Virus record (IMG/VR): IMGVR_UViG_3300044957_000619 | Direction: 5' to 3' (one strand) | Length of the DNA: 64,000 bases | From: a virus | Shown: one piece after another, positions 9,070 through 39,829 of the stretch | Numbering within the stretch: position 1 is the first letter of the stretch | Layout of the letters: the number at the start of each line of letters is the position of its first letter | The notes under the pieces: generated by a model | What the model was told of the DNA's origin: nothing | What the model saw: the letters and a program-made list of their open reading frames with translations, nothing else | Databases searched by the model: none | Translations under genes and position numbers: made by a program

Positions 9070-9324
9070 TTACGCGGCCCGGGTCTCTGATTGCGATGCT
9101 CTTAACTCGGCAGCTGCTATGTTATCAGGATGACGGAAGTCTTGTTGTATACCTAACGTCTCCATCACGTGATATATGGCACACCACTTAATGCCACACC
9201 ACTTACCTCTGAGGCGATCGGTTAATGCATCTTCTGCACCATACCATTGCTGTGCCATCATGTAACGTAAATATGCTTGGGCTTCTTGATTCTGGATCGC
9301 TTGGATCATGTTCTGCTTTGTCAT
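9070..9324 (-). CDS. Hypothetical early protein (cassette)
   Basis: 84 aa behind promoter repeat R1; internal 15-nt duplication (KWCGI-KWCAI). Confidence 0.65.
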   Translation of the reverse strand: MTKQNMIQAIQNQEAQAYLRYMMAQQWYGAEDALTDRLRGKWCGIKWCAIYHVMETLGIQQDFRHPDNIAAAELRASQSETRAA

Positions 9325-9417
9325 TGTCTTTCTCTTTTAATTAATAATAATAAAGATAAGAAATATGTTTCATATATCCTAATCTTTTAGCAACTTTTTT
9401 TACTTTTTTTTATAGCA

Positions 9418-9444
9418 GAAATCCGACGCCTTTCGACGCCGGAT
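9418..9444 (-). terminator. Hairpin, probable terminator after the AAA ATPase
   Basis: ATCCGGCGTC-GAAA-GGCGTCGGAT-TTC. Confidence 0.6.
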
Positions 9445-9466
9445 CCTGGTTTGAGAAATATGTGTT

Positions 9467-10417
9467 CTAAGCCGGGATGATTTGTTCTGCAATCATCATT
9501 TTTGGATTCTCAAAGCCCATTGCACATATGCGTGCTGCTTTGATAAAGCTACGCAGGTTGATCTCTACGCCATCAAACTCTGCATCAAGCTCCTTCATTA
9601 ATGTCAATGCCTGCTCTTTTGCTGGCATCGGAATGCGACGCTCCATTGTTACCATCAACTGCGACATTCTGGCAAACATCTGATCCGTTGTCAATGCAAC
9701 ATCACTTACAAAGCTTCGGCTGCGGATTGCTTCATCCAAGCGGCTTTGGTTGATGTTGGAGATAAAGATGATGCGTCCTGTGAATTCAAAATGACGTGGT
9801 ATTTCACTACCAAACTCGTCTTTAAGAGTCTTTGTGGAGATGTAACTTAGCCTGCGGGTGTCATAAGAATCCAAAGCCGCTTTGAGGATATTAACTGCAT
9901 CATCATCTTTGAATACCGAATCACAGTCATCCAACACAATAACCTTGTCGCTATTCTCATACAGCGTAATAAACAAGCCTGCAGGCGTAGCACGACCCTT
10001 GAAGTGAACAAAGTCGGTAGACTCCTTAAGGCCCAATGACTCCAATGTACTCTTAACCAAATGCGTCTTGCCCGTACCGGCACCTCCGGTAATAACAAGT
10101 GACGGCTGAATGCCGCGCCCTACCATTTTAGTTAGACGCTCAATGTTTGCAAACATCTCCTCCGGGTCCTGGGTTTGCTTGGTTTGCATAAAGGACATCT
10201 TGACAGCCGGAGGTGGTGTCAATGCAACACCCATATCAGCGGCAGGGACTCTGGTAACACGTCCCGTTGCGGATACTACTAATACCTCACGGTTCTTCTC
10301 AGCATTCAGCAGCTGGATGTGTCGGATGGTGTCCTTAGTCGCTATGCTACCTGTGGTTGTGTTCTTAGCAAACAACTTGCCTTTAATTCTAACTGGTTCA
10401 AAAACATTACTCATCAT
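9467..10417 (-). CDS. AAA+/P-loop ATPase
   Basis: Walker A GGAGTGKT, Walker B VIVLDDCD, sensor IFISN, arginine finger AIRSRS. Confidence 0.85.
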   Translation of the reverse strand: MMSNVFEPVRIKGKLFAKNTTTGSIATKDTIRHIQLLNAEKNREVLVVSATGRVTRVPAADMGVALTPPPAVKMSFMQTKQTQDPEEMFANIERLTKMVGRGIQPSLVITGGAGTGKTHLVKSTLESLGLKESTDFVHFKGRATPAGLFITLYENSDKVIVLDDCDSVFKDDDAVNILKAALDSYDTRRLSYISTKTLKDEFGSEIPRHFEFTGRIIFISNINQSRLDEAIRSRSFVSDVALTTDQMFARMSQLMVTMERRIPMPAKEQALTLMKELDAEFDGVEINLRSFIKAARICAMGFENPKMMIAEQIIPA

Positions 10418-10503
10418 GTATCTCTCTTTTTAATTATACTTAAAGATAAGCAAAAAAAGAATGCGATCCAACCGTTTCGCAAACTTTTTTCAAACTTTTT
10501 TTT

Positions 10504-10782
10504 CTAGTTGCCGATATTGTTGAAATCAAAATCATTGACAATGGCATTGATTGCGGATCCGCCATGCTGCGCAGCATGCTTTTGGCCAGCTACTTGGGAC
10601 AACGCCCGGGCAAAGTCTGGAAGGTCACCCTTTGCCTTTGCAACAAGCAACATTTCCATCAAATGGCCCAACAACACAAAGTCTTTATCGTCGGTTAGCA
10701 TTGCTAACACCTCAGCATTGGTTTGAGCATCTGTTACGTTCTGGATTAAGTCCCTAGCTAACTGTTCTTGCATCTTGTTCAT
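10504..10782 (-). CDS. Hypothetical early protein (cassette)
   Basis: Behind repeat R3. Confidence 0.65.
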   Translation of the reverse strand: MNKMQEQLARDLIQNVTDAQTNAEVLAMLTDDKDFVLLGHLMEMLLVAKAKGDLPDFARALSQVAGQKHAAQHGGSAINAIVNDFDFNNIGN

Positions 10783-10863
10783 CGCTCTCTTTTTAATTAT
10801 ACTTAAAGATAAGTAATATGTTTCATATATCCTAATCTTTTTGCAACTTTTTTTAAACTTTTT

Positions 10864-11043
10864 TTAAACTTTTTTTAAGCCTAATTCAGCTGCTACATAA
10901 TTAACATGTTTGGTGGTTGTCTTGCTCCAGTAGCCCAATACAAGTAACTTGTTGCCATTAATGGTTGCTACATGGGTAGTATAAGAAATAACTCGATCTC
11001 CGTCTATTCGAAGATTCTTTTTGTAACGATTCAATTTTTTCAT
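10864..11043 (-). CDS. Hypothetical early protein (59 aa)
   Basis: Likely start MKKLNRY at 11043 after AAAAAGAGAG leader; SYTTHVA...YWSKTTTKHVN phage-type motif. Confidence 0.65.
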   Translation of the reverse strand: MKKLNRYKKNLRIDGDRVISYTTHVATINGNKLLVLGYWSKTTTKHVNYVAAELGLKKV

Positions 11044-11045
11044 GT

Positions 11046-11100
11046 GCTCTCTTTTTACGTCCGCAAGGGCCGACATTGCTGCCGACCCGGGACTGAGAGA
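11046..11100 (-). promoter_or_regulatory. Structured 5' leader sequestering the AGAGAG element
   Basis: Nested pairing CTCTC/GAGAG, GTCC/GGAC and GGGTCGGCA-GCAA-TGTCGGCCC. Confidence 0.55.
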
Positions 11101-11141
11101 TATAGCAAAGATTTTAGCATTGCAATTTGTTAATTGTTCAA

Positions 11142-11495
11142 TCAAATACAAGCTTGGTTCCGGAGACCATACATCATATCGTCGCTTTCCTCAAATATGT
11201 TTTCCATTGTCTCGCGTATCGCTGCAACTATGCGATTCGTGTTTATAGGCACACTCGCCAATACAATGGTGTTGTGATACAAATCAAACTCAGCATTGTC
11301 AAAATCAACTATGTCGCTGCTGTACAAATTGCCAATGGCTTTATCTACAACATCCATTATTTTGTCAAACGACTCGTTATTTAATAGGACCTTTTCTTCC
11401 AACTGCTGGATAAGGGCAATTACTTGGTCGATTGACACTACTGATGTTAATGCCTTTGCTGCTTCTAATTGTGCTACTAATTCTTGTTTTTTCAT
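11142..11495 (-). CDS. Hypothetical early protein (cassette)
   Basis: Behind repeat R4. Confidence 0.65.
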   Translation of the reverse strand: MKKQELVAQLEAAKALTSVVSIDQVIALIQQLEEKVLLNNESFDKIMDVVDKAIGNLYSSDIVDFDNAEFDLYHNTIVLASVPINTNRIVAAIRETMENIFEESDDMMYGLRNQACI

Positions 11496-11559
11496 CGCTT
11501 TTTTTTTTGGTTTTGTGGGACTATTCCCTTTTTAATTATACTTAAATTTAAAGAAAAAA

Positions 11560-11715
11560 TCAATGCGATCCAACCGTTTTATCTTCTAGTTTTGAAAAAT
11601 TTTGCACTACTATTTGGCACACTTCACATAGTATCTGGTTATCTTCGATTCCTACGGCTTCGAGGAAGGTGCATAAGTCAATTTGAATTTGTTCTTTTAC
11701 TTCAGCTTTTGTCAT
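11560..11715 (-). CDS. Small hypothetical protein (51 aa)
   Basis: Not in ORF track; MTKAEVKEQIQIDLCTFLEAVG...; stop lies inside repeat R4. Confidence 0.55.
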   Translation of the reverse strand: MTKAEVKEQIQIDLCTFLEAVGIEDNQILCEVCQIVVQNFSKLEDKTVGSH

Positions 11716-11815
11716 GGCTCTTTTTGATTTATTTACTACTTTTTTTTGCTGCGGCTAATCAACATCATGATTAGCACCACATTGAGCAACAAGCTCATAT
11801 ATACTATCTTGCCTA

Positions 11816-11965
11816 TCATACTCCAATGTATACGGCACCTGTGGTTCCTGTTACTAACTTGTAAACAATAAAGGCAATGCCAAATACAAATAACCCGGTG
11901 CATGCTACTGCTAATGCTTTAAGGGTTACTGCTACTACGTTCTCGATGCTAAACACTTTTTTCAT
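11816..11965 (-). CDS. Small membrane protein (49 aa)
   Basis: Not in ORF track; MKKVFSIENVVAVTLKALAVACTGLFVFGIAFIVYKLV..., directly behind repeat R5. Confidence 0.65.
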   Translation of the reverse strand: MKKVFSIENVVAVTLKALAVACTGLFVFGIAFIVYKLVTGTTGAVYIGV

Positions 11966-12058
11966 TTTTCTCTCTTTTTAATTATACTTAAAGATAAGCA
12001 TTTTTTCAATGCGATCCAACCTTTTTTCAAAAAAAGTTTCAAAAAAGTTATTCACAAT

Positions 12059-12118
12059 CTTGCAAGTTTTTTAACTTCATTGATTGATTTGCGCGCTCTA
12101 ACGCCAGCTGCCTTTGTC
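12059..12118 (-). other. Out-of-frame fragment of a histone-H1-like gene allele
   Basis: 49/57 nt identical to 4172-4228; reads KAAGVRARKSINEVKKLA; nearly all mismatches synonymous. Confidence 0.8.
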
Positions 12119-12310
12119 TATGAATTCAATAACATATTCAAACAGCGCTGGATCATCAATATCAAATCCATCTTCATCTCGGAACACCGTATCGATTACT
12201 TTACCGCGCTCATCTAAATAATCAGTAACCGTAACTATGTTACCTGCTGTCAATTGAACCTGGTACCTTTCTGTAGTGATCGTTTCTACATGTTTACTAA
12301 CTAACTTCAT
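12098..12310 (-). CDS. Hypothetical early protein (cassette)
   Basis: Behind repeat R6; last codons come from the captured H1 fragment. Confidence 0.65.
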   Translation of the reverse strand: MKLVSKHVETITTERYQVQLTAGNIVTVTDYLDERGKVIDTVFRDEDGFDIDDPALFEYVIEFIDKGSWR

Positions 12311-12393
12311 TTCTCTTATTTTTTAATCATACTTAAATTTAAGGACTAAATCAATGCGATCCAACCGTTTCGCAAACTTTTTTCAAACTTTTT

Positions 12394-13131
12394 TTACAGG
12401 TATTGCTCAAGCAATTTGATGCCTGGAAGTGCAGCCAATGCCTCCTCAGCCTGACGAACCAATTGTCGTGCACGCTCATTTGTGATGCCCATCTCCTCAC
12501 CAATCTGCTCCATGCTCTGTGCATACTCAAACCCTAATCCATAATTACGACGCAATGCTTCTGCTTGCCTAGGCTTCAATTGTGCCAATGCTCTATCAAT
12601 GTCAAACTGCAGATCCGCGCGGTCTCTGCTGCTGCGCACCTCATCGGCTGCTAAGTATCGATCCGCATATGTCTCTTTGTTCTCATCATCGCCTACCGGA
12701 GTGGAAATGCGCTTGATGGAGTACTCTTCGGTAGCCGTACGGTGTGATGGAATCCTTACTGTGCGAGACAAATCATTAAGGGCCTTCTGCAACTCGGCGC
12801 GGATATACCATACTGCAAACGTAATGAATTTAACATTCTTGCTGGTATCAAATCGATCCACAGCCTCAAACAATCCAATGTTGGCAAATGCTATAAGATC
12901 TTCCATCTCCAAGCCCATGCCCTGATACTGACGGGCCACTTGCACCGCAAACCGCAAATTGCTTTCTATTATGGTATTGCGTGCCTTAAGGGAGCCTGCC
13001 TGTGCTGCTTGGATTAACTGGGTCTCGTCTTCTCTGCTAATGACCCGAGCCTTCTTTATCTCGGCTACATAACGCTTTGTGGATTCGGCGCCTACTATTG
13101 CACCATTTGTAACATTGATTCTTCTTTTCAT
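12394..13131 (-). CDS. Sigma-70 family (RpoD/SigA-like) RNA polymerase sigma factor
   Basis: Region 2 NLRFAVQVARQYQGMGL..DLI...NIGL..AVDRFD...KFITFAVWYIR, RTVRIP, region 4 HTH SMEQIGEEMGITNERARQL; no region 1.1. Confidence 0.92.
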   Translation of the reverse strand: MKRRINVTNGAIVGAESTKRYVAEIKKARVISREDETQLIQAAQAGSLKARNTIIESNLRFAVQVARQYQGMGLEMEDLIAFANIGLFEAVDRFDTSKNVKFITFAVWYIRAELQKALNDLSRTVRIPSHRTATEEYSIKRISTPVGDDENKETYADRYLAADEVRSSRDRADLQFDIDRALAQLKPRQAEALRRNYGLGFEYAQSMEQIGEEMGITNERARQLVRQAEEALAALPGIKLLEQYL

Positions 13132-13134
13132 AAC

Positions 13135-13210
13135 GCTTATTTCTTTTTGTATATTATACCGGGTTTCTTGCTCTAGGGTTACCTTTTTTTCAAACTTTTT
13201 TGAAACTTTT
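13135..13210 (-). promoter_or_regulatory. Second-class promoter upstream of the sigma gene
   Basis: A-tracts-GGTAACCCT-N13-CGGTATAAT; related GGTAACCCT...GGTTATTTAT at ~14340-14372. Confidence 0.5.
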
Positions 13211-13221
13211 TTAGCCCCGCA

Positions 13222-13407
13222 CTATTTTACTATGTGGGGTTTCTGTAATGCTGCTTGAGCTTCTCTGTAAATGCGGTTGCGTTCTGCTTGTGCCATTGCA
13301 TGTTTTACTGCTGCATTTAATTGCTGAGGACGTTTTGCATCTGCCAACAACCGGGCTGACACTGCATCTTGCTTGAAAAATCCTGAATTCTTTTTGCCTA
13401 CTGCCAT
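13222..13407 (-). CDS. Hypothetical early protein (cassette)
   Basis: Behind repeat R7. Confidence 0.65.
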   Translation of the reverse strand: MAVGKKNSGFFKQDAVSARLLADAKRPQQLNAAVKHAMAQAERNRIYREAQAALQKPHIVK

Positions 13408-13624
13408 ATCTCTTATTTTTTAATTATACTTAAATTTAAGGACTAAATCAATGCGATCCTAATCTTTTGCAAACTTTTTTTGAAAAAGTTATTCACAATT
13501 TTCTGCTTCATCTGCTTCAAGTATTCTATCGATATACTGCCGGATTAGTCAAGCAATTTTTCGTTTTCATGGCGTTTTGTTTCAATGTGCGTTACGGATG
13601 CGCACCCCCCCCCGGATTGGTAAT

Positions 13625-13861
13625 TTATTGATTGTTAATAATATCGTTTACTAATTCATGAGCGTCATGCCATTGAGCCCAACGTGTAAGTGACCGAATG
13701 TATTCGGGTGATTCTTTACCCAAATGCGTCTCGCAAAGATTCAAGAAGTCCCGCTCTTGTCTTTGTCGTAATCGTAATTGCTCAAGGATAAGGTCCAACT
13801 TGATTTGTGCGGTCTCTTGCGCTTGTTCGCCGGTGTTGTTTTGTTGGTTCATTGTTTCCAT
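13625..13861 (-). CDS. Hypothetical early protein
   Basis: 78-aa ORF, second gene of the R8 cassette. Confidence 0.6.
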   Translation of the reverse strand: METMNQQNNTGEQAQETAQIKLDLILEQLRLRQRQERDFLNLCETHLGKESPEYIRSLTRWAQWHDAHELVNDIINNQ

Positions 13862-13867
13862 GTTGTT

Positions 13868-14035
13868 TTATTCTTCTAATTGATCTATAACTGATTTAAT
13901 TACACCTTCTAAATATCCATAACAATATGCTCCGGTCAACAACGTTCCATCCGCTTTCTTAGCCCATCTTTCTTGAGCTACAGCTAGTTTCTTTTTCAAT
14001 GATGCTACTAATGCTTTTTTTTCTGCTTTTGTCAT
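13868..14035 (-). CDS. Small hypothetical early protein (55 aa)
   Basis: Not in ORF track; MTKAEKKALVASLKKKLAVAQERW...YCYGYLEGVIKSVIDQLEE directly behind repeat R8. Confidence 0.7.
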   Translation of the reverse strand: MTKAEKKALVASLKKKLAVAQERWAKKADGTLLTGAYCYGYLEGVIKSVIDQLEE

Positions 14036-14129
14036 TTTACTCTCTTTTTAATTATACTTAAAGATAAGAAAAAAAAGAATGCGATCCAACCGTTTCGCAA
14101 ACTTTTTCCAAACTTTTTTTAAGTTTCAA

Positions 14130-14351
14130 TTATCCTACTTCTTTTTCTTCTACTGAGGCGTATGTGTCTCTTCCGTGTGCACTATACGTCTCAAGGATCA
14201 TGTTTTTCTCTCGAGCTATTTTTTTAAGTTCCCACAGTGCATCTTTTTCCTTTTCATAAACTGAAATTGAAACCCAATCCGGTTCGCTGAACATTAACAC
14301 AAAAACTGTTTTTCTTTTTATCTGTCTTATTTTAATTTTATAAATAACCAA
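14130..14351 (-). CDS. Hypothetical protein, start uncertain (possibly degenerate)
   Basis: Protein-like from KTVFVLMF; the annotated upstream part overlaps a promoter-like sequence. Confidence 0.4.
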   Translation of the reverse strand: MVIYKIKIRQIKRKTVFVLMFSEPDWVSISVYEKEKDALWELKKIAREKNMILETYSAHGRDTYASVEEKEVG

Positions 14352-14375
14352 AATTTTGTAAAGGGTTACCCTTTT

Positions 14376-14774
14376 TTATAAAAAAAGTTTTGAAAAAGTT
14401 TCAGCCGTTTTAAGTGGACCTTTAAAGTCATTTTCACGTCCCCATATTTCAGCTAAGCCGGAGTGGCTGCACTTAGGAATTACTGTATATACTACATTAC
14501 ATGTCTCGATATTGCATATACGGAAATCATCATACAATGGGCCGCGGCCCGGGCAATTGTTTTTGAAGAATACATAATGATCCAAAAGATCAATGTCATA
14601 CGCTTTAACAAAGCGCTCGGTTTGTTTCATCAACGTCCGGGCTTTGCGCGCTAAAGATGAATCCTTGCAAAACCAATCATAGAAATTGAAACATTTTGAT
14701 TGACTCCCATCGGCATCTAATATTAAGCCATTTGCTTGGGCATTTAATTGATCTGCTAAACTAACTCTGTTCAT
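14376..14774 (-). CDS. Hypothetical early protein (cassette)
   Basis: FYDWFCKD...YVFFKNNCP...LYDDFRICN; behind repeat R9. Confidence 0.7.
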   Translation of the reverse strand: MNRVSLADQLNAQANGLILDADGSQSKCFNFYDWFCKDSSLARKARTLMKQTERFVKAYDIDLLDHYVFFKNNCPGRGPLYDDFRICNIETCNVVYTVIPKCSHSGLAEIWGRENDFKGPLKTAETFSKLFL

Positions 14775-14864
14775 TTCTCTTATTTTTTAATTATACTTAA
14801 AGATAAGCATTTTTTCAATGCGATCCAACCAAAATCCAAAAAAAGTTTAAAAAAAGTTATTCAC

Positions 14865-15026
14865 AAAAAAAGGGCGACCGAAGCCGCCCATGGTACACGC
14901 CTGGGAATAAGAGAGAGAAACCCGTTGGTCATGTTACCCATAATGAGACGGGATCGAGGTGTTAGCGCTAACACCATGGTGGTTACGATCCCGCCAAGTG
15001 TGAAGGTCGATACTATCGATCCCGTC
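14865..15026 (-). ncRNA. Structured RNA / long 3'-UTR ending in a terminator
   Basis: 11-bp stem GACGGGATCGA/TCGATCCCGTC, palindrome GGTGTTAGCGCTAACACC, competing GGCGGGATCG copy, CU-rich segment, terminator GGGCGGC-TTCG-GTCGCCC-T7. Confidence 0.55.
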
Positions 15027-15027
15027 G

Positions 15028-15111
15028 TTATTTTCTTTTGTATTCTCGGTATGCGATCGCCGCAATCAATGCAATCAACGTCGTCATCCAAACTATAAAT
15101 AATAGCATCAT
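15028..15111 (-). CDS. 27-aa single-TM peptide (type I toxin-like)
   Basis: MMLLFIVWMTTLIALIAAIAYREYKRK; TTGGA...TTTCATATAAT promoter directly upstream. Confidence 0.55.
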   Translation of the reverse strand: MMLLFIVWMTTLIALIAAIAYREYKRK

Positions 15112-15212
15112 TTCCTTTTATTATGCTCATATTATATGAAATACGCGCACATAATCCAACCACAATACAAAAAAAGTTTGCGCTGTATAGCTAGAGAACC
15201 AAACGAAACCGG

Positions 15213-15747
15213 GTCTAAAGCCTGGTTTTGGTCTAAAAATAACGCATATTGGACTAAAAATCAAACCGGCTTTGCTCTAAAAATAATCTAAAAATAACGC
15301 ATATTGCTCTAAAAATAGCGGGAGGGTGCGGATATTGTGCTAAAAATAACATGTTCAGATCACTAGCTATACAGACGCGCGCATAGCATCTAAAAATAAA
15401 GCTGGTATTAGATTCACTATATATAGAGCGCATGATGGACTAAAAATAACAGCCACTCGGACTAAAACGTAACCAGGGAGATTGGGGTCGAGTCCGTTAA
15501 AACCAGCTGATATTGATCTAAAAATAGATGCACCCGTATACTGGCTCTTACAGTTCGTTTAAGAACATTGTAGCCCTTTTGGAGTCTAGATATTCGTGAA
15601 ATGGGAATAAAGAGTCTATGCCCCACGAAAACATGTAACACCGGCAGGGAGATATCTTAAAGATCTTGCTGGTAGCTACTACACACTAAACTTTGCTTTA
15701 CATATCGTAATAAGACTATTAACATTACGTGTATCCATCTAAAAATA
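15213..15747. repeat. Iteron-like CTAAAAATA repeats in an ~800-bp non-coding region
   Basis: Exact copies at 15233, 15277, 15288, 15309, 15340, 15390, 15440, 15518, 15739 plus variants at 15215, 15254, 15462; 20-bp direct repeat TCTAAAAATAACGCATATTG at 15232 and 15287. Confidence 0.85.
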
Positions 15748-15970
15748 CGCGGGGAGAGGGAGCCATACTAGACTCCGTTTTGTGTCTACCAGGACTAGTA
15801 ACGCAATCAAGGATACCTGGATAAAGTGGGACTTGTGTGTTTACAAGCGTTTATACTTCGTGCATACTTATATTGTATACTTGCTTATGCTTGCTTCGTA
15901 TATGCTTACCGAGTTGCATTCTTCAGTATCCGTAAACATTACAATGCTACGGCTACTACGTAGTTTAACA

Positions 15971-22076: not shown

Positions 22077-22115
22077 AACTGGCCTTTAATATAAATAAGA
22101 ACCTAAGCAGTTTTG

Positions 22116-22187
22116 TAGTCGGTACGGGATTCGAACCCGTGTGACGAGAATGAAAATCTTGTATCCTAACCCCTAGATGAACCGACC
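22116..22187 (-). tRNA. tRNA-Glu (anticodon TTC)
   Basis: GGTCGGT acceptor stem, D arm, CAAGA-TTTTCAT-TCTCG anticodon arm (one mismatch), GGTTCGAATCC T arm; no encoded CCA. Confidence 0.88.
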
Positions 22188-28826: not shown

Positions 28827-28884
28827 ATGCTCTTTATTTTATATAAAATATGAAATTACTATTCAGTTTCCAACCAAATACAGC

Positions 28885-39481: not shown

Positions 39482-39829
39482 TTACTTCCAAAAGAGCTGT
39501 ACTAAAATAAGAGATACTGCTAACATCAATGAAACTGCAGTTTTTAGATTGATTGTTTCGCCTTTAAACATGTATGTCATGATGGTAAAAATAAAGATAC
39601 CCGCAACAAATGATATAAATCGCCCAGGCCAAAATTGTCCTCCAAAGCCTGATACTGCATAACGAGTTGCTTCCATGAAAGTCCATGTTATAGGAACACC
39701 TAAAAACATCAATGCAAGTTTATATGTTCGAGCCCACTGCCAAAGCAATGGTCCATTTATTTGAATCCAAACAACAATTTGGCTTAATACGAATATTGTT
39801 ATTGATAACGCAATGTGTCGATAATTCAT
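39482..39829 (-). CDS. Four-TM membrane protein (DMT/SMR-like)
   Basis: Four hydrophobic helices; likely start MNYRH. Confidence 0.6.
   Translation of the reverse strand: MNYRHIALSITIFVLSQIVVWIQINGPLLWQWARTYKLALMFLGVPITWTFMEATRYAVSGFGGQFWPGRFISFVAGIFIFTIMTYMFKGETINLKTAVSLMLAVSLILVQLFWK

Follow-up and report, generated by a model that had tools for sequence, protein, structure and literature searches.

Results

A predicted RNA unit next to the early cassettes

The locus described here belongs to an uncultured freshwater phage whose virus record comprises 158,320 bp with terminal repeats; our window, the whole stretch of DNA that was analysed (64,000 nucleotides), corresponds to bases 71384-135383 of this record. 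All large ORFs of the phage are carried on the minus strand, and the gene content of the record includes a sigma factor, a GroEL-like chaperonin and further phage proteins. Because a DNA search of cultured-phage records gave no match and protein searches returned distant phages only, we conclude that the phage is without a close cultured relative. The sole tRNA gene in the window is a tRNA-Glu (UUC) at 22115-22187 on the minus strand.

Read from its signals, the stretch 14865-15160 (minus strand) is one transcription unit that heads the early region, flanked by a gene-free TTATTTTTAG-repeat tract of ~800 bp and by an array of nine early promoter cassettes. The unit is discrete at the motif level, with its own promoter and intrinsic terminator, both of which are listed for this stretch in a preliminary description of this DNA and lie on the minus strand. 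The predicted promoter, (GG)TTGGAT-N17-TATAAT at 15131..15159 (minus strand), was read directly and is conserved in about 25 relatives, where the family consensus is GGTTGGAT-N13-TTTCATAT(A/T)AT. By its motifs it is a sigma-70-type promoter; its -35 hexamer matches the consensus at only 3/6 positions, which is why the consensus scanner did not list it. It is preceded by the conserved upstream box CTAGCTATACAGCGCAAAC (15176..15194, minus strand), which a T-tract follows; the box aligns in relatives and, used as a search pattern, recovered more members carrying the RNA. Transcription is predicted to end at the intrinsic terminator GGGCGGC-UUCG-GUCGCCC followed by U7 (14865..14889, hairpin 14889..14872, minus strand), the sole site from 10.5 to 18.5 kb that a terminator scan scored as strong.

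The TTATTTTTAG repeats form an array at 15180-15750 (minus strand), immediately upstream of the RNA promoter, and are similarly placed in the relatives L261, L264, L292 and L165; in L264 and L292, copies also lie within the spacer of the RNA promoter. This arrangement suggests control of the RNA promoter by a DNA-binding protein or, alternatively, an origin within the tract. The possibility that the RNA is a replication primer beside an iteron field was rejected, there being no supporting evidence. Promoters of the form TTGGA-N13/14-TTTCATAT(A/T)(A/T)TAT, similar to the RNA promoter, also precede non-early genes at 28873, 30147, 22404, 55696, 17714 and 213 (minus strand), and these may constitute a class apart from the cassette promoters.

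A small ORF separable from the RNA

Downstream of the promoter, the ORF list contains a 27-codon ORF, MMLLFIVWMTTLIALIAAIAYREYKRK (15028..15111, minus strand), predicted to encode a membrane peptide that has a single helix and, at its C-terminus, a basic tail. The 27-aa membrane peptide of the preliminary description is thus in place at 15111..15028, and the ORF is retained in relatives: at the same position most of them have a frame of 26-56 aa whose product contains a hydrophobic core and ends in a charged tail, and these products fall into at least eight sequence types that are unrelated to one another. The dN/dS ratio of the small ORF is mostly below 1 and, within clades, mostly 0.1-0.5. 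Given this ratio and its retention in place across at least eight sequence types, the small ORF is most likely a real gene for a single-pass membrane peptide, which matches no Pfam or PHROG family.

The RNA is separable from the peptide: a subfamily shares promoter and RNA but has no peptide ORF, and in L203 and L204 the RNA modules lie behind unrelated soluble genes. The unit combines an ORF under purifying selection with an independently conserved RNA domain whose helices covary, as expected of a dual-function transcript.

A conserved family of modular RNAs

In about 45 distinct related phage sequences we recovered members of the same RNA family. Four search routes were used: the neighbouring 132-aa protein, which led to loci in which the RNA was then found by nhmmer; the upstream promoter box as a pattern; the RNA module M1 as a pattern, without reference to the CU loop described below; and the CU hairpin as a pattern, which gave many viral and metagenome contigs and one contig of a metagenome-assembled genome (MAG). 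The protein, promoter-box and M1 routes are independent of one another, and among the relatives that they gave, the promoter, small ORF, RNA modules, CU loop and terminator recur. A scan of genome contigs gave one true member, the MAG contig binned as Helicobacteraceae, together with two chance matches. This 7.5-kb contig from a lake, L220 (CAIUZU010000197.1), carries a complete member of the family, and its binning agrees with the general AAAGGA Shine-Dalgarno sequence of the phage and with the phased A/T tracts upstream of its promoters. Together these three features point weakly to Campylobacterota as hosts, with mis-binning possible.

The structured RNA downstream of the ORF is about 165 nt long and modular. 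In the window, it folds only modestly better than shuffled sequences (z = -2.17). The window has lost module M1 by deletion between TAACGA(C/A)GGG repeats; in relatives the module covaries, with CCGGG/CCCGG replaced by UUGGG/CCCAA and with U-A/A-U/C-G exchange in its inner helix. Module M2 is the hairpin GACGG-GAUCGAU...AUCGA-CCUUC (15002..15026, minus strand). Module M3 (14947..14995, minus strand) is a conserved helix, GGCGGGAUCG/CGAUCCCGUC, around the internal loop UAACCAC / UAACACCU, and module M5 (14892..14939, minus strand) is, according to the fold, the stem bearing the CU hairpin, with a 3' strand that is invariant within the clade. Within the clade, the segment from the CU hairpin to the terminator shows at most about one change, compared with 9-23/78 nt in the ORF.

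The 10-bp helix of M3 occurs as four sequence alleles that preserve 9-10 of the 10 pairs. Because the clades are out of register in the mixed MAFFT alignment A2, on which RNAalifold recovered only 5 pairs, the M3 helix was counted with hand-set anchors and then with a stated structure. In the formal count with the stated structure, 85.8% of cells are paired vs 29-48% when the strands are slid, and 4 pairs show two-sided changes; the paired percentage was matched by 0/500 shuffles, and the result stands despite five out-of-register rows. Helices of both M3 and M1 thus covary.

The preliminary description had also portrayed the RNA as switch-like. The elements on which this was based exist: an 11-bp stem, GACGGGAUCGA / UCGAUCCCGUC, in the minimum-free-energy fold, whose first copy is the 5' half of M2; a second, competing copy, GGCGGGAUCG, read directly at 14995..14986 (minus strand); and an 18-nt palindrome, GGUGUUAGCGCUAACACC, read directly at 14975..14958 (minus strand) within M3. 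All of them are restricted to the window or to one clade. The palindrome is lineage-specific and was found in the window only, and the competing 5' segment that forms the 11-bp stem is present only where the 3' strand is CGAUCCCGUC and fails to follow when that strand changes. With the competing stem confined to one clade and free of covariation, and neither the palindrome nor the 11-bp stem conserved, a conserved switch is not supported.

In the ORF-less subfamily (L261, L264, L292, L227/L012 and L283), the same promoter is followed by a GGUUGAUCCAACC hairpin, M3, CAUAUCUCUC, M1 and the CU hairpin; this different order indicates that modules have been shuffled within the family. Rfam gave no match at gathering score in the window, and between 14700 and 16100 there were only chance-level matches (E 0.5-9), the C4 antisense RNA being among the families compared. 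A riboswitch or ribozyme was rejected, since Rfam gave no signal and the unit contains no gene downstream. By these comparisons, the RNA is a conserved family that lies outside every described family and is absent from Rfam.

An exposed CU loop complementary to early leaders

As a seed we propose the CU loop UUUCUCUCUCUUAUU, closed by GGG/CCC and nearly invariant in the family; it is the CU segment singled out in the preliminary description and lies at 14920..14906 on the minus strand. In the window its predicted unpaired probability is 0.98 vs 0.43 for the entire RNA, and it is predicted to be unpaired at 0.7 or more in 22 of 30 full-length relatives. In members recovered without the loop as query, the loop is either unchanged or altered at its 3' end only. 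The CU motif always lies between complementary arms, the sequence of which varies by clade, and in one clade a second CU motif is found within the terminator loop.

The loop is complementary to the AAUAAGAGA and AGAGAGAAA tags that precede early cassettes. The inferred targets on the minus strand are AAUAAGAGA in the leader of the first early cassette (14776..14784, ATG 14774; -9.8 kcal/mol, with the CU loop as the best site on the RNA), AAUAAGAGA at 13409..13417 (ATG 13407) and at 12312..12320 (ATG 12310), both exact 9-mers supported by duplex prediction, and AGAGAGAAA at 11967..11975 (ATG 11965), an exact 9-mer with -12.4 kcal/mol. The 9-base complements claimed in the preliminary description before these four starts are thus exact; all four lie directly before early-cassette starts, and the coding strand has no other 9-mer complementary to the loop anywhere in its 158 kb. 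A second TCTCTTATT, at 39506, was rejected as a leader target as it lies inside a membrane-protein ORF. The longest match to the loop is at least 8 nt in 5/9 early leaders vs 2/171 other ORF starts (Fisher p = 1.7e-6, the cassettes being paralogues), and duplex prediction places the best site on the whole RNA in the CU loop for 7/9 early leaders, with energies of -9 to -12.4 kcal/mol. Most phage genes have AAAGGA as their Shine-Dalgarno sequence, so that the AAGAGA tag marks the early class. The early leaders of relatives carry the same tags by the dozen, and in the ORF-less subfamily a further single-stranded element, CAUAUCUCUC, complements GAGAGAUAUG, that is, the leader tag together with the start codon.

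The match between loop and leaders owes much to composition: when the loop is shuffled with its composition preserved, 5.5% of trials match the nine leaders, on average, at least as well as the real loop. Scanning duplex energies across the genome does not single out the leaders, because G-rich or G-U-rich sites elsewhere score equally well or better. The matrix of loop types against leaders is non-diagonal and gives no clear compensatory pattern, one loop type fitting the leaders of most genomes best. GAUA(A)GAG leaders make up 6/35 in genomes with a loop ending in UUAUCU vs 0/228 in others, all from a single lineage.

The nine early cassettes (9300-14870, minus strand) have near-identical promoters and very short leaders, with GGTTGGATCGCATT upstream of TTGAAA/TTGATT-17-TATAAT; given this element upstream of each, a second promoter, TTGGAT-17-TATCTT, may overlap the first. 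The cassettes also contain GGTTGGATC, which, probably by coincidence, is identical to the beginning of the universal 3' end of 16S rRNA. In a variant long leader at 11500-11575 (minus strand) and in many relatives, a small hairpin, GGGAAUAGUCCC or AGGGAAAGGCCCU, lies between the -10 element and the start codon; this hairpin is specific to particular cassettes and conserved across genomes. Another conserved intergenic element, at 11040-11130 (minus strand) and in L163, L165, L193, L205 and L006, consists of a stop codon, an anti-RBS word (ACAUAUCUCUC in relatives, UAUAUCUCUC in the window), a GC hairpin and then the gene start AAGAGAG(A/C)AUAUG. It looks like a cis-acting structure for RBS sequestration or translational coupling, and the anti-RBS word of the RNA is used in cis as well, before another gene of these phages.

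Discussion

Altogether, we favour, at a little short of an even chance, a model in which this unit produces a dual-function transcript resembling RNAIII, the RNA part of which acts in trans as an anti-leader regulator of the early gene class. The exposed CU loop would base-pair with the (A)AUAAGAGA / AAGAGAGA(AA) tag, which makes up the very short leader and Shine-Dalgarno region of the nine early cassettes and of dozens of cassettes in relatives. Such pairing would cover positions of about -12 to -3 and block 30S binding, and as the stable RNA accumulates it would damp or time the entire early gene class. Computation supports the layout of the unit, the coding status of the small ORF and the non-coding status of the remainder, the covariation of helices, the conservation and exposure of the loop, and a complementarity restricted to early leaders. 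What would happen in vivo we infer: the pairing itself, its direction (repression and not protection), its timing, the shut-off of translation and the function of the peptide. The RNA promoter resembles host sigma-70 promoters, as the early promoters do, so the sequence gives no sign that shut-off would be delayed. Between the two readings offered in the preliminary description, a trans-acting sRNA and a type-I-toxin-like or switch-like mRNA, the former fits best: the RNA is conserved, covarying and modular, its CU loop is exposed and near-invariant, it complements the early leaders and it exists without the ORF. Besides the compositional share of the match and the weak loop-leader co-variation, it counts against pairing in trans that the needs of translation or of the promoter could by themselves explain why the leader tag is conserved, and that modules M1 to M3 are conserved yet unaccounted for by leader pairing.

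The unexplained modules and the composition of the loop are also what would speak for a protein-binding or decoy RNA, in which the CU loop and the AACCAC/AACACC internal loop would dock a host or phage RNA-binding protein, such as an S1-like protein, a cold-shock-type protein or a nuclease, and the leader complementarity would be a by-product of composition. We regard this as unlikely. It would accommodate a loop that is invariant while leaders vary somewhat, the marginal order-specific match, the weak co-variation of loop and leaders, and the structured M1 and M3 with conserved unpaired nucleotides that leader pairing does not account for; no candidate protein is known, however, and the restriction of exact 9-mers to early leaders, the second element of the ORF-less subfamily with its complementarity extending through the AUG, and the two loop copies in some clades, as in multi-seed sRNAs, all argue against it. 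Alternatively, the CU loop or the competing stems might pair with the transcript's own 5' leader and, as a 3' domain in cis, silence or stabilise the peptide mRNA in the manner of a type I toxin or of self-regulation. The small hydrophobic peptide with its basic tail would fit, as would the AAUAAGA in the own leader of many relatives (7 nt of loop complementarity), the predicted loop of the L177 clade, which is largely paired (0.18-0.45 unpaired), and the cis anti-RBS hairpins that this phage group uses elsewhere. The partial complementarity to the peptide's own leader noted in the preliminary description does exist, but it amounts to just 5 nt in the window and to a variable 4-8 nt across relatives, where it is not conserved. 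The competing stem is limited to one clade and shows no covariation, the RNA also exists where there is no peptide ORF and behind unrelated genes, the 5' leader is short and unstructured, unlike that of hok-type mRNAs, and a consensus scan of the plus strand over 14865-15160 gave no antisense promoter-like site. Regulation in cis is accordingly quite unlikely, and from the type-I-toxin-like mRNA of the preliminary description it is the peptide gene that stands, while the fold-back is unconserved and the RNA is not tied to the ORF.

Two simpler accounts would dispense with a regulatory RNA. That the unit is simply a gene for a small protein, whose long, stable 3' UTR and terminator regulate nothing themselves, is suggested by its layout of promoter, ORF and terminator and by the modest folding score; we consider it very unlikely, as within the clade the RNA has changed less than the coding part, its helices covary and it occurs without the ORF. 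We virtually discount a protein-coding role for the 100-aa ORF 14861..15163. In the window this frame is open, and its conservation at the protein level had been named in advance as a finding that would overturn an RNA interpretation; it is not conserved, close relatives keeping a sense frame of 35-41 aa open over the loop. Relatives differ from one another through module swaps and indels of about 56 nt, and the frame matches neither a PHROG nor a Pfam family.

Returning to the anti-leader regulator, we tentatively propose a broader claim, as a possibility and not an expectation: that translation of a whole early class is under the control of one phage RNA, which acts through a single invariant seed and a shared leader tag complementary to it and, by virtue of its peptide, is a phage analogue of RNAIII. 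If this holds, an abundant structured RNA using one seed against dozens of identically tagged early mRNAs would represent a simple, RNA-only control of a temporal class, and the Rfam-absent, conserved RNA family would be an addition from widespread uncultured freshwater phages. Because the seed and the tag are common to the phage group, the RNA might moreover cross-silence the early genes of superinfecting relatives.

Several known systems share part of this design. Type I toxin mRNAs (hok/sok, tisB, ibs, fst) likewise join an ORF for a small hydrophobic peptide to structured RNA, in our case located downstream; in contrast to these, no antitoxin RNA gene was found here by promoter consensus scan, the fold-back is unconserved, the RNA exists without the ORF and the leader is short and unstructured. 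Phages are known to shut off or time their early genes as a class by means of proteins, among them the T4 translational repressor RegA and the T4 endoribonuclease RegB. If our model holds, the phage described here would also shut off its early mRNAs post-transcriptionally as a class and through their ribosome-binding regions, with an RNA as the agent in place of proteins. To our knowledge, known phage antisense RNAs act on single operons. One of these phage-encoded RNAs, the P4 CI RNA, has loops that pair around the RBS of genes belonging to the phage itself. P1 c4 RNA likewise has loops that pair around an RBS (PMC12197685), and the P1/P7 c4 RNA and P4 CI RNA resemble the RNA described here in being phage-encoded with loops complementary to the RBS surroundings of own genes. 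They differ in serving the immunity of temperate elements, in acting on one operon and in being processed from the target transcript, whereas here a separate unit would present one seed to many dispersed cassettes; an Rfam C4 match is also lacking.

Bacterial sRNAs provide the closer parallels. RNAIII and RsaE both use C-rich loops to mask ribosome-binding sites (PMC2837412, PMC2790875). RsaE/RoxS-type sRNAs have a conserved unpaired pyrimidine motif that masks the Shine-Dalgarno regions of several mRNAs (PMC2790875), and the phage RNA shares such a motif while differing from them in its sequence, size and origin and in its extra conserved modules M1 and M3. S. aureus RNAIII differs in that it has no sequence or Rfam relation to the phage RNA and in that its loops carry UCCC and not a 15-nt CU repeat; the RNA described here is encoded by a phage, has the phage's own early leaders as candidate targets, lacks the ORF in one subfamily and is known from sequence alone. 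The likeness lies in the overall plan: in RNAIII, as would be the case here, one transcript provides a membrane-active peptide of only some 26 aa together with pyrimidine-rich hairpin loops complementary to the RBS regions of related mRNAs (PMC2837412), and the copy of the loop in the terminator hairpin of one phage clade recalls hairpin 14 of RNAIII. Thus, the unit would give a phage example of the dual-function design that combines a peptide with a regulator.
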